A stretch of DNA of 25,499 nt from a virus (IMGVR_UViG_2734482552_000002); one strand, 5' to 3'. Counted from the first letter of the stretch, positions 1 through 5,574 are shown. A program made the numbers and translations. Notes: generated by a model not told the origin, from the letters alone.

Positions 1-2
1 GG

Positions 3-212
3 TTATCGCTCGCCACGGGAATATCTGCGGCAGCGGGCTTGTAATGGGTTAAGTGATAACAGATGTCTGGAAATATAGGGGCAAATCCAATCGTCGCCGT
101 ATTCCCGTATTAACAGAGACCGTAGCCCGACGGGGAACTCCTTCTGCGCGAGTGTGCGGGAATAATCAAAAACGATGCACACCGGGGTTACCGGGTACAC
201 ATATTTCATCAT
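3..212 (-). CDS. hypothetical small protein (69 aa), weakly supported
   Basis: Complete ORF from the track (MMKYVYPV...), start codons at 210-212/207-209, stop at 3-5. Same orientation as and 45 nt downstream of the 258-668 gene. No clear Shine-Dalgarno; product not recognised. Confidence 0.2.
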   Translation of the reverse strand: MMKYVYPVTPVCIVFDYSRTLAQKEFPVGLRSLLIREYGDDWICPYISRHLLSLNPLQARCRRYSRGER

Positions 213-257
213 GCCAGCGAGTCCGGTTCTGGCACGGAAGAAACCGGACGTTATGAT

Positions 258-668
258 TTAGTGCGGAAATATTTGTGTAGTGTTCTGTATGTTCTCAGTA
301 AAGAGTAATGAATTATCAAAGGTATAGTAATACCTTTTGTTTTCGTGGATATTTGTAATCCATCTGAAAACCCCTGCTGTAGCAAGATTTTTCCTGTATT
401 CGTAAAATGATAACTCTCCTGATTTGAATCCTTTTAAGGTGGCTTCTATAAGGCATTTATTTTTTGAAAATCTTACATTTACAACCTTACCCTGTCCTTT
501 TATTAAAACCGTATTATCGTTTTCAAGAACAAGATGAATATTCTCTGTGGCTAAATAGTAAATGTAATGTGAGACATTGTGACGTTTTAGTTCAGAATAA
601 AACCAGTGATAGTTTAAATTATTTCGCACTTTATCGAATATTTGTTTAAAAATGGCAACCTGAGCCAT
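258..668 (-). CDS. hypothetical protein, AT-rich moron gene (136 aa from second ATG; 141 aa if ATG at 683 is used)
   Basis: ORF-track ORF 258..683. The internal ATG at 668 is preceded on the coding strand by GGAAGG about 8 nt upstream, so it is the more likely start. Visibly AT-rich (roughly 30% GC by eye) against a roughly 50-57% GC background. Product rich in N/K/Y/F; I do not recognise a family. Confidence 0.5.
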
Positions 669-725
669 TGTAGTACCTTCCATGTGATATGAGGGGGCGT
701 AGTCTGCACGATTATCTAAATTGCT

Positions 726-959
726 TCAATCTGGTCTAACCTGTTTTCTGAGCAATTCAGTAATGTCACTCTTTTCTTTGTTTGCTTCAGGCGAAACTCT
801 TTTTTCTGAGCACAGTCTCCGGCGGCAGGCTTCAATGACCCAGGCTGAGAAATTCCCGGACCCTTTTTGAACAAGAGCGATGTTAATTTGTTCAATCATT
901 TGGTTAGGAAAGCGGATGTTGCGGGTTGTTGTTCTGCGGGTTCTGTTCTTCGTTGACAT
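726..959 (-). CDS. small basic DNA-binding protein, ribbon-helix-helix (Arc/CopG/MetJ-like) fold predicted
   Basis: 77-aa ORF MSTKNRTRRTTTRNIRFPNQMIEQINIALVQKGSGNFSAWVIEACRRRL... The pattern is a basic N-terminus, a short beta-strand (RNIRF), helix A (PNQMIEQINIAL), a G-x-G/N turn and helix B, which is typical of RHH repressors and antitoxins. Sits 57 nt upstream of the 258-668 gene on the same strand. Confidence 0.5.
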   Translation of the reverse strand: MSTKNRTRRTTTRNIRFPNQMIEQINIALVQKGSGNFSAWVIEACRRRLCSEKRVSPEANKEKSDITELLRKQVRPD

Positions 960-1158
960 GAGGTTGCCCTGTATTCAGTGTCGCTGATTTGTATTGTCTG
1001 AAGTTGTTTTTACGTTAAGTTGATGCAGATCAATTAATACGATACCTGCGTCATAATTGATTATTTGACGTGGTTTGATGGCGTAGATGCACGTTGTGAC
1101 ATGTAGATGATAATTATTATCATTTTGCGGGTCCTTTCCGGCGATCCGACAGGTTACG

Positions 1159-1170
1159 GGGCGGAAGGCG
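1159..1170. promoter_or_regulatory. cosN: cosN 12-nt cohesive-end segment (GGGCGGAAGGCG)
   Basis: Positional alignment to lambda: the 12 nt following ...CAGGTTACG and preceding CGCGGGTTTTCGC. The lambda overhang I recall is GGGCGGCGACCT; here positions 7-12 read AAGGCG. Confidence 0.6.
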
Positions 1171-1266
1171 CGCGGGTTTTCGCTATTTATGACAATTTTC
1201 CGGTTTAAGGCGTTTCCGTTCTTCTTCGCCGTAACCTAATGTTTTTATTTAAAACACCCCCTGAAA

Positions 1267-1323
1267 AGAAAGGAAACGACAGGTGCTGAAAACGGGCTTT
1301 TTGGCCTCTGTCGTTTCCTTTCT
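1267..1323. repeat. cosB: cosB inverted repeat (Nu1-binding R-element pair)
   Basis: Perfect 16-bp inverted repeat AGAAAGGAAACGACAG (1267-1282) / CTGTCGTTTCCTTTCT (1308-1323) between cosN and the nu1 start, as for the lambda R3/R2 elements. Confidence 0.7.
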
Positions 1324-1347
1324 CTGTTTTTGTCCGTGGAATGAACA

Positions 1348-1867
1348 ATGGAAGTCAACAAAAAGCAGCTGGCTGACATTTTCGGTGCGAGTATCCGTAC
1401 CATTCAGAACTGGCAGGAACAGGGAATGCCCGTTCTGCGAGGCGGTGGCAAGGGTAATGAGGTGCTTTATGACTCTGCCGCCGTTATAAGATGGTATGCC
1501 GAAAGGGATGCTGAAATTGAGAACGAAAAGCTGCGCCGGGAAGTTGAAGAACTGCGGCAGGCCAGCGAGACAGATCTCCAGCCAGGGACTATTGAGTACG
1601 AACGCCATCGACTTACGCGTGCGCAGGCCGACGCACAGGAGCTGAAAAATGCCAGAGACTCCGCTGAAGTGGTGGAAACCGCATTCTGTACTTTCGTGCT
1701 GTCGCGGATCGCAGGTGAAATTGCCAGTATTCTCGACGGGATCCCCCTGTCGGTGCAGCGGCGTTTTCCGGAACTGGAAAACCGACATGTTGATTTCCTG
1801 AAACGGGATATCATCAAAGCCATGAACAAAGCAGCCGCGCTGGATGAACTGATACCGGGGTTGCTGA

Positions 1868-1893: not shown

Positions 1894-5574
<3,681 letters not shown>

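Follow-up and report, generated by a model that had tools for sequence, protein, structure and literature searches.

Here, we report the analysis of two adjacent minus-strand genes near the cos site of a lambda-like virus, in a stretch of 25,499 nucleotides (IMGVR_UViG_2734482552_000002; the whole stretch is called the window below). The pair is probably this phage's copy of the ynfO-ydfO arrangement of the Escherichia coli K-12 Qin prophage, that is, two individually conserved, independently mobile accessory genes of the slot between the lysis genes and cos. Both genes are already known, as named K-12 genes and as Pfam families (DUF3950 and DUF1398). The reading is built on the observed family membership, synteny, separability, purifying selection, and conserved 5′ region of these genes.

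Locus organization

The window is a lambda-type late region in which Nu1 lies at 1348 to 1893 (Pfam Phage_Nu1, 2e-101), followed by the terminase large subunit gene A and then by a full set of head and tail open reading frames (ORFs); the Nu1 start is 389 nt from the start codon of the DUF3950 gene. To the left of cos, ORF calling on the window placed two minus-strand ORFs, one encoding 77 aa and one spanning 258 to 683. The latter has an internal ATG at 668, downstream of a GGAAGG ribosome-binding site (676 to 681), which gives a 136-aa product and a 57-nt gap to the upstream gene and is the start annotated for K-12 ydfO. The features of the locus are collected in Table 1.

The initial annotation, made on the sequence alone, had described two co-oriented genes 57 nt apart, transcribed against the late operon in the slot between the lysis region and cos, the downstream one at roughly 30% GC by eye. 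Its factual core is correct, since the ORFs, the start at 668, the gap, and the GC contents (136-aa gene, 31.4%; 77-aa gene, 44.4%; whole window, 53.4%) all check out. The order of lysis cassette, gene pair, and cos/Nu1, with the pair antisense to the late operon, is the same in PhiR49_1 and ev099 (the closest phages) and in lambda, and the slot is indeed the variable accessory region where lambda has bor.

Table 1. Coordinates of the gene pair and neighboring features in the window
Feature	Position	Strand	Basis
ynfO-like gene, 77-aa DUF3950 (YlcI/YnfO)	726..959	-	Pfam, NCBIfam, PHROG, identity to K-12 YnfO
ydfO-like gene, 136-aa DUF1398 (YbcV/YdfO), soluble, AT-rich	258..668	-	Pfam, PDB 2HH8, identity to K-12 YdfO
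Conserved block 5′ of the DUF1398 gene (control region)	669..745	-	Promoter scan, four-locus conservation
54-nt segment replacing 613 nt of lambda	743..796	.	blastn against lambda
Inverted repeat ATCAATTAATACG / CGTCATAATTGAT	1029..1061	.	Repeat search
Phage DNA 3′ of the cassette, homologous to the lambda ybcV-bor spacer	90..257	.	Homology starting at 89/90
Right end of an IS3-family (IS2-like) element, outside the cassette	1..89	.	Match in E. coli LR-71-1
cosN cohesive-end sequence GGGCGGAAGGCG	1159..1170	+	Alignment with lambda, PhiR49_1, DLP12, Qin

The 77-aa protein

The 77-aa protein is a member of DUF3950: it matches Pfam PF13132 (2e-20, 72.8 bits; cut-off, 25), scores above the NCBIfam cut-off for NF041551 (YlcI_YnfO_N; 35.2 bits versus 30), matches phrog_949 (6e-33), and shares 97% identity with YnfO of E. 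coli K-12. The dN/dS of its core is 0.28 against lambda, 0.23 against phage 2851, and 0.07 against phage 705R7 (the last reached at dS 1.4), and that of the DUF1398 gene is 0.29 against lambda. Because these values are accompanied by Pfam scores far above cut-off, the 77-aa and 136-aa ORFs are, on sequence evidence, judged to be real genes under purifying selection, not chance ORFs. In the family alignment, the N-terminal ~50 residues are almost invariant and the tails are hypervariable after CRRRL; the protein divides into a basic N-terminal arm that does not vary, a core (residues ~14 to 52) that is probably ribbon-helix-helix (RHH), and a variable C-terminal tail. The gene adjoins, and diverges from, the packaging genes in the window, lambda, DLP12, Qin, and phage 2851. 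The lambda counterpart, a ylcI-like ORF at 48139 to 48303 (equal to window 795 to 959), is unannotated in J02459 / NC_001416.

An RHH signature had been read in the 77-aa product by the initial annotation; the predicted helices and an alignment in Arc register are in line with it, but no structural or profile match in the PDB was significant. An AlphaFold monomer model (pLDDT, 68.6; core, about 82) is extended up to residue 18 and has helices at 19 to 32 and 34 to 52, joined at G33; the N-terminal strand of RHH proteins forms only in the dimer, and this model is of a monomer. The best Foldseek matches of the model in the PDB were ParD antitoxins, at E > 3, and its nearest structural neighbors were ParD, MazE, and RelB antitoxins, none of them significant. 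When the DUF3950 core was compared by hhalign with RHH sequences, the NikR N-domain (P = 0.004) and Arc (P = 0.009) aligned, as did RelB and Mnt, all four in the correct strand and helix-A register, while seven non-RHH controls gave only fragments of 3 to 16 columns with P of 0.28 or more. A profile search of the PDB with DUF3950 returned no RHH match. The family pattern N-[IL]-R-[FW]-P-x-x-[MV]-[IL]-[DE] ... G-x-x-x-x-S runs in register with Arc, and the predicted strand-helix-turn-helix fold and the basic N-terminal arm are shared with RHH regulators (Arc, Mnt, the NikR N-domain, ParD, RelB, and M. tuberculosis MazE). DUF3950 differs from RHH regulators and antitoxins in that it is a separate Pfam family, no comparison with them was significant, and neither a partner toxin nor an operator was found. 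From the model and the alignments, an RHH fold is likely, if weakly supported.

The inverted repeat of Table 1 lies 70 to 100 nt upstream of the DUF3950 start codon. It was considered as an operator of the probable RHH protein but is not established as one, being present in all lambda-cos-type loci and missing ahead of the DUF3950 gene of phages 2851 and 705R7; with its conservation confined to close relatives of lambda-cos type, the repeat gives no basis for naming an operator.

The 136-aa protein

The 136-aa protein, which the initial annotation could not assign to a family, proved to belong to DUF1398 (PF07166, 3e-43, 147 bits; cut-off, 22; profile positions 1 to 119 of 119) and is 76% identical to K-12 YdfO and 76% identical to lambda lambdap78. 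Over residues 1 to 135 it aligns with PDB 2HH8, the NMR solution structure of YdfO (E = 2.9e-67), a "YdfO-like" fold that structural genomics solved without a function assignment and that was the only match in a profile search of the PDB with DUF1398. All 16 divergent DUF1398 members matched the DUF1398 family only. A HEPN_AbiA_CTD match (E = 0.014) was discarded as noise; it was gone with the 136-aa start and was not found in 15 other family members. Our own model of the 136-aa protein had a pLDDT of 48.6, too low for fold comparison, and an internal repeat in DUF1398 was weakly suggested (P = 0.006).

A search of the 136-aa protein for a hydrophobic segment found none. The gene is labeled "head protein" in RefSeq and PHROG, without sequence support, and the label "putative envelope protein" is likewise unsupported, since there is no hydrophobic segment and a solution structure was obtained. 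Every DUF1398 gene examined has a GC content 9 to 22 points below that of its surroundings, which bears out the foreign base composition claimed earlier for the downstream gene; low GC is a trait of the whole DUF1398 family and fits a horizontally moving accessory gene.

Relatives and distribution

The K-12 Qin prophage has the layout of the window: nohA, ynfO (234 nt), a 57-nt gap, and ydfO (411 nt). Its ynfO (b4533) and ydfO (b1549) agree with the window pair in family, order, strand relative to the Nu1 homolog nohA, lengths, and gap. The Qin pair lies in a decayed cryptic prophage, whereas the window pair lies in a lambda-like late region that appears complete, from Nu1 and A to the tail genes, and, unlike that of Qin, has an IS element 168 nt downstream. 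Lambda (lambdap78, lambdap79, and the ylcI-like ORF) and DLP12 (ybcV, ybcW, and ylcI) hold both families in the same Rz/bor-cos slot and on the same strands, and the lambda DUF3950 core (residues 1 to 55) is 94.5% identical to that of the window. In lambda and DLP12, however, the two genes are separated by ybcW (lambdap79), which is on the opposite strand, and there the DUF3950 protein is shorter (64 aa, versus 77 aa in the window) and has a different tail. The comparison across lambdoid prophages that had been proposed as a check thus found the same slot and strands in Qin, lambda, and DLP12, but not an inseparable pair. The initial annotation had also named, as a finding that would count against it, that both proteins were conserved lambda genes of known non-defense function; conserved in lambda they are, but a known non-defense function they do not have.

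Phages PhiR49_1, ev099, Kati, and Chlobot contain an identical cassette, and lambda, DLP12, and HK629/630 carry both genes. The cassette is in at least 80 IMG/VR contigs (two viral scans, which found near-identical copies only), and a match spanning 80% or more of window positions 1 to 1350 is present in at least 2,629 of 5,426 complete E. coli genomes. Each gene also occurs by itself. By tblastn against a phage collection, DUF3950 was found in 155 records and this DUF1398 in only 43; the Stx-type phages 2851 and 705R7 have DUF3950, between the lysis genes and an HNH-TerS-TerL module, without DUF1398 within 2.5 kb. Solitary distant DUF1398 genes lie beside an aryl-polyene cluster in Pseudocitrobacter and in a JGI genome and beside a fimbrial operon, and K-12 ycgX, a homolog of ybcV and ydfO, adjoins bluR on the chromosome (PMC3509220).

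DUF1398, with its atypical GC content and its presence or absence among similar phages (43 records), is moron-like; ybcW, too, is present or absent between relatives. With the lambda morons bor and lom, the window genes share the kind of slot, the anti-late orientation, the atypical composition, and dispensability for lytic growth; bor and lom, however, encode outer-membrane proteins with known phenotypes, whereas neither the 77-aa nor the 136-aa protein has a signal peptide or membrane segment.

Several other records were encountered in these searches. A 177-aa DUF1398 protein (only 27% identity by tblastn) is encoded in the Rz-to-Nu1 slot of other E. coli prophages (L008-L010, locus positions 5001 to 5534), likewise antisense to the late genes but in the absence of any DUF3950 ORF; the slot is repeatedly occupied by the DUF1398 family. 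Contigs of ~3.5 kb in ENA contain hundreds of singleton frameshifted variants of both proteins, which inflate homolog counts and look like error-rich reads of lambda DNA, not natural diversity. Record MW057783.1 ("Campylobacter phage CJLB-4," 48,361 bp) has a lambda-identical YbcV at near-lambda coordinates, and a "Campylobacter" record is also among the DUF3950 matches; MW057783.1 probably represents lambda DNA, not a Campylobacter phage.

The 5′ control region and mosaic breakpoint

In addition to the ribosome-binding site, the block upstream of the DUF1398 gene contains a promoter-like site (−35 TAGACC, 738 to 733; −10 GATAAT, 716 to 711), which matches the consensus at only 9 of 12 positions in the promoter scan, and a PdhR-box-like sequence, ATCTGGTCTAACCTGTT, at 729 to 745. 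The block overlaps the last codons of the upstream DUF3950 gene. Sequence conservation among the window, Qin, DLP12, and lambda covers the ~75 nt preceding the DUF1398 start, with or without a DUF3950 gene on the upstream side, the shared elements being GGAAGG, the GATAAT −10-like hexamer, and GGT(C/T)AGACCAGAT. The DLP12 counterpart of the last element is a reported PdhR site between ybcV and ybcW, and ybcV mRNA was down 10-fold in a pdhR mutant (PMC7660256). Because the block is conserved whatever lies further upstream, DUF1398 carries a control region of its own along with it; in the window layout, the two genes may be cotranscribed. A repeat search found no repeat shared between the DUF3950 upstream region and the DUF1398 promoter.

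By blastn, the window matches lambda at 94.9% identity over 797 to 1400 and at 82.6% over 89 to 742, and the intervening 613 nt of lambda (ybcW and the 3′ end of the ylcI-like gene) are replaced in the window by 54 nt. The right mosaic breakpoint (796/797) cuts the DUF3950 gene at codon 54-55, so that codons 55 to 77 are nonhomologous to the lambda tail, and a recombination breakpoint inside the gene accounts for the invariant N terminus and hypervariable tail of the family. Since it partly overlies the ybcV promoter DNA of lambda, the tail is unlikely to be a conserved partner-binding domain.

Flanking features

A possible third ORF (3 to 212) in the initial annotation turned out to be a chimera, because it runs from phage DNA into an IS terminus at 89/90. 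Homology to related phages, including lambda, begins at that point, and bases 1 to 88 match no phage record; bases 1 to 89 match the end of an annotated IS3-family transposase element in E. coli LR-71-1 and, from the terminal sequence, are probably the right end of IS2. The ~41 phage-derived codons of the ORF matched no PHROG family. The IS end, which truncates the phage DNA, abuts it 168 nt downstream of the DUF1398 stop codon, and the exact IS/phage junction was found in one piece in no complete E. coli genome of the collection. Beside the junction, at the equivalent of about window 96 to 122, the HK629 annotation has a consensus-like minus-strand promoter.

The cos site was placed at 1158/1159 because window 1158 is where the linear lambda record stops. 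The cohesive end is GGGCGGAAGGCG in the window and GGGCGGCGACCT in lambda, PhiR49_1, DLP12, and Qin, with differences at five of the last six bases. Among the loci retrieved, 7 distinct IMG/VR contigs have exactly the window variant, which is a minority allele (85 E. coli records match window 1136 to 1195 at ≥95%, versus 2,944 lambda-type records at 90 to 95%); it could change cohesive-end or terminase specificity. A sigma-70-like site at 1096 to 1123 on the plus strand (10/12; GTGACA-16-TATCAT), directed to cos and Nu1, overlaps the palindrome ATGATAAT-T-ATTATCAT (1107 to 1123), 35 to 50 nt left of the cos nick. An Rfam scan of positions 1 to 1500 gave only chance miRNA-like hairpin matches, at 1262 to 1329.

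Reported expression and phenotypes of homologs

Lambda lambdap78 was nonessential in a CRISPRi screen (PMC10695390). The ydfO promoter is inducible, with a 12-fold (microarray) to 117-fold (quantitative PCR [qPCR]) response to ionic liquid (PMC4077768), and ydfO is responsive to DicC overproduction (PMC11430063). In MG1655, the convergent genes ybcW and ylcI overlap, and the overlap is transcribed (PMC12288877); DUF3950 is listed in capsid-forming satellites with their own TerS/TerL (PMC13612085). The slot carries lysogen-expressed accessory genes such as bor (PMC7067206). YdfO overexpression has been credited with higher oxidative-stress resistance (PMC4077768), a statement traced to Wang 2010; this, the sole phenotype claimed for YdfO, was set aside as a gene-name mix-up, since Wang 2010 names YfdO of CPS-53 and never ydfO. 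A second paper prints ydfO in place of yfdO (papers concerned: PMC4077768, PMC9181523, and PMC3105296). In the literature searched, no phenotype of either gene was reported.

Discussion

The initial annotation held that the arrangement fits a type II toxin-antitoxin, superinfection-exclusion, or abortive-infection module, or a regulator with cargo; the toxin-antitoxin or defense reading is unsupported: the genes are inherited separately, the DUF1398 gene has its own 5′ region, and no PADLOC match was meaningful. In a type II toxin-antitoxin system, the 77-aa protein would be an RHH antitoxin whose C-terminal tail neutralizes a DUF1398 toxin. The arrangement is suggestive, with a small RHH-like gene followed, 57 nt further on and on the same strand, by a larger one, and so are the nearness of the 77-aa model to the ParD, MazE, and RelB antitoxins (nonsignificant), a weak PHROG match of the 77-aa protein to HicB-like antitoxins (E = 0.055), and the variability of the tail across the DUF3950 family. 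We nevertheless regard this as highly improbable. Co-inheritance is lacking (155 versus 43 phage records, and solitary copies of each gene), an opposite-strand gene splits the pair in lambda and DLP12, and the genes are not tightly coupled as a bicistron, the 57-nt gap holding a conserved promoter-like region and a separate ribosome-binding site. Moreover, the tail arises at a recombination junction, partly over the lambda ybcV promoter region, the 136-aa protein matches no toxin family (DUF1398 alone in Pfam and the PDB, and noise only in PADLOC), and YdfO could be produced for the NMR structure 2HH8. It is very unlikely that either gene or both, each acting singly, serve in phage defense or superinfection exclusion when expressed from the prophage: PADLOC-DB 2.0 gave nothing for the 77-aa protein and only Csx23 for the 136-aa protein, at noise level (E = 0.023, 12.7 bits), the weak HEPN_AbiA match was not reproduced in other family members, and chromosomal DUF1398 copies lie beside metabolic and fimbrial genes, not in defense islands. 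What speaks for such a role is a slot that holds lysogen-expressed accessory genes such as bor (PMC7067206), together with AT-rich composition, transcription of homologs from cryptic prophages, and dispensability for lytic growth.

It is unlikely that the two genes form a regulator and its cargo, with the DUF3950 protein directly controlling the adjacent DUF1398 promoter in the Qin-type layout. The genes are adjacent, the promoter-like site of DUF1398 reaches into the 3′ end of the DUF3950 gene, and many RHH proteins regulate adjoining genes; yet DUF3950 is conserved in many phages without DUF1398, and vice versa, the DUF3950 upstream region and the DUF1398 promoter have no common repeat, and the DLP12 homolog is reported to depend on host PdhR (PMC7660256). 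The most interesting rival, because the position is kept across unrelated terminase types and in capsid-forming satellites, has DUF3950 act at the junction of lysis and packaging genes, on transcription into the packaging genes or on DNA near cos. The gene always immediately precedes the packaging module and diverges from it, be the module Nu1/A or HNH-TerS-TerL, it occurs in capsid-forming satellites with their own TerS/TerL (PMC13612085), and its core is under very strong purifying selection (dN/dS 0.07 at dS 1.4). Such a role is quite improbable all the same, as the gene is read against the late operon, is retained and transcribed in cryptic prophages in which DNA packaging has been lost, and has unrelated upstream DNA in the two packaging types, and as conserved synteny alone suffices to explain its position. 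We also think it unlikely that either of two wider claims is right, namely that DUF3950 is a dedicated RHH regulator of the lysis/packaging junction or else that the Qin-type pair is a new antitoxin-like/effector pair.

Under the reading that we prefer, the two would be independent accessory genes of lambdoid prophages that happen to adjoin each other in the Qin-type layout. The DUF3950 gene would most likely encode a small dimeric RHH DNA-binding protein with a basic N-terminal arm, as the model and alignments suggest, a transcriptional regulator made from the prophage and fixed in position next to the packaging genes; its C-terminal tail would be whatever sequence follows the recombination breakpoint at about codon 55. 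The product of the DUF1398 gene would be a soluble cytoplasmic alpha+beta protein of the YdfO fold, encoded by a gene with its own host-regulated promoter and ribosome-binding site and of AT-rich foreign composition, dispensable for lytic growth. By analogy with its homologs, it may be a lysogen-expressed accessory protein, which fits because DUF1398 homologs are switched on by host regulators and stress.

As a discovery, the pair carries little weight, with K-12 gene names, Pfam families, and one PDB structure already to hand and the region present in about half of complete E. coli genomes. Its residual value is that two strongly constrained genes are kept by lambda and by thousands of prophages.
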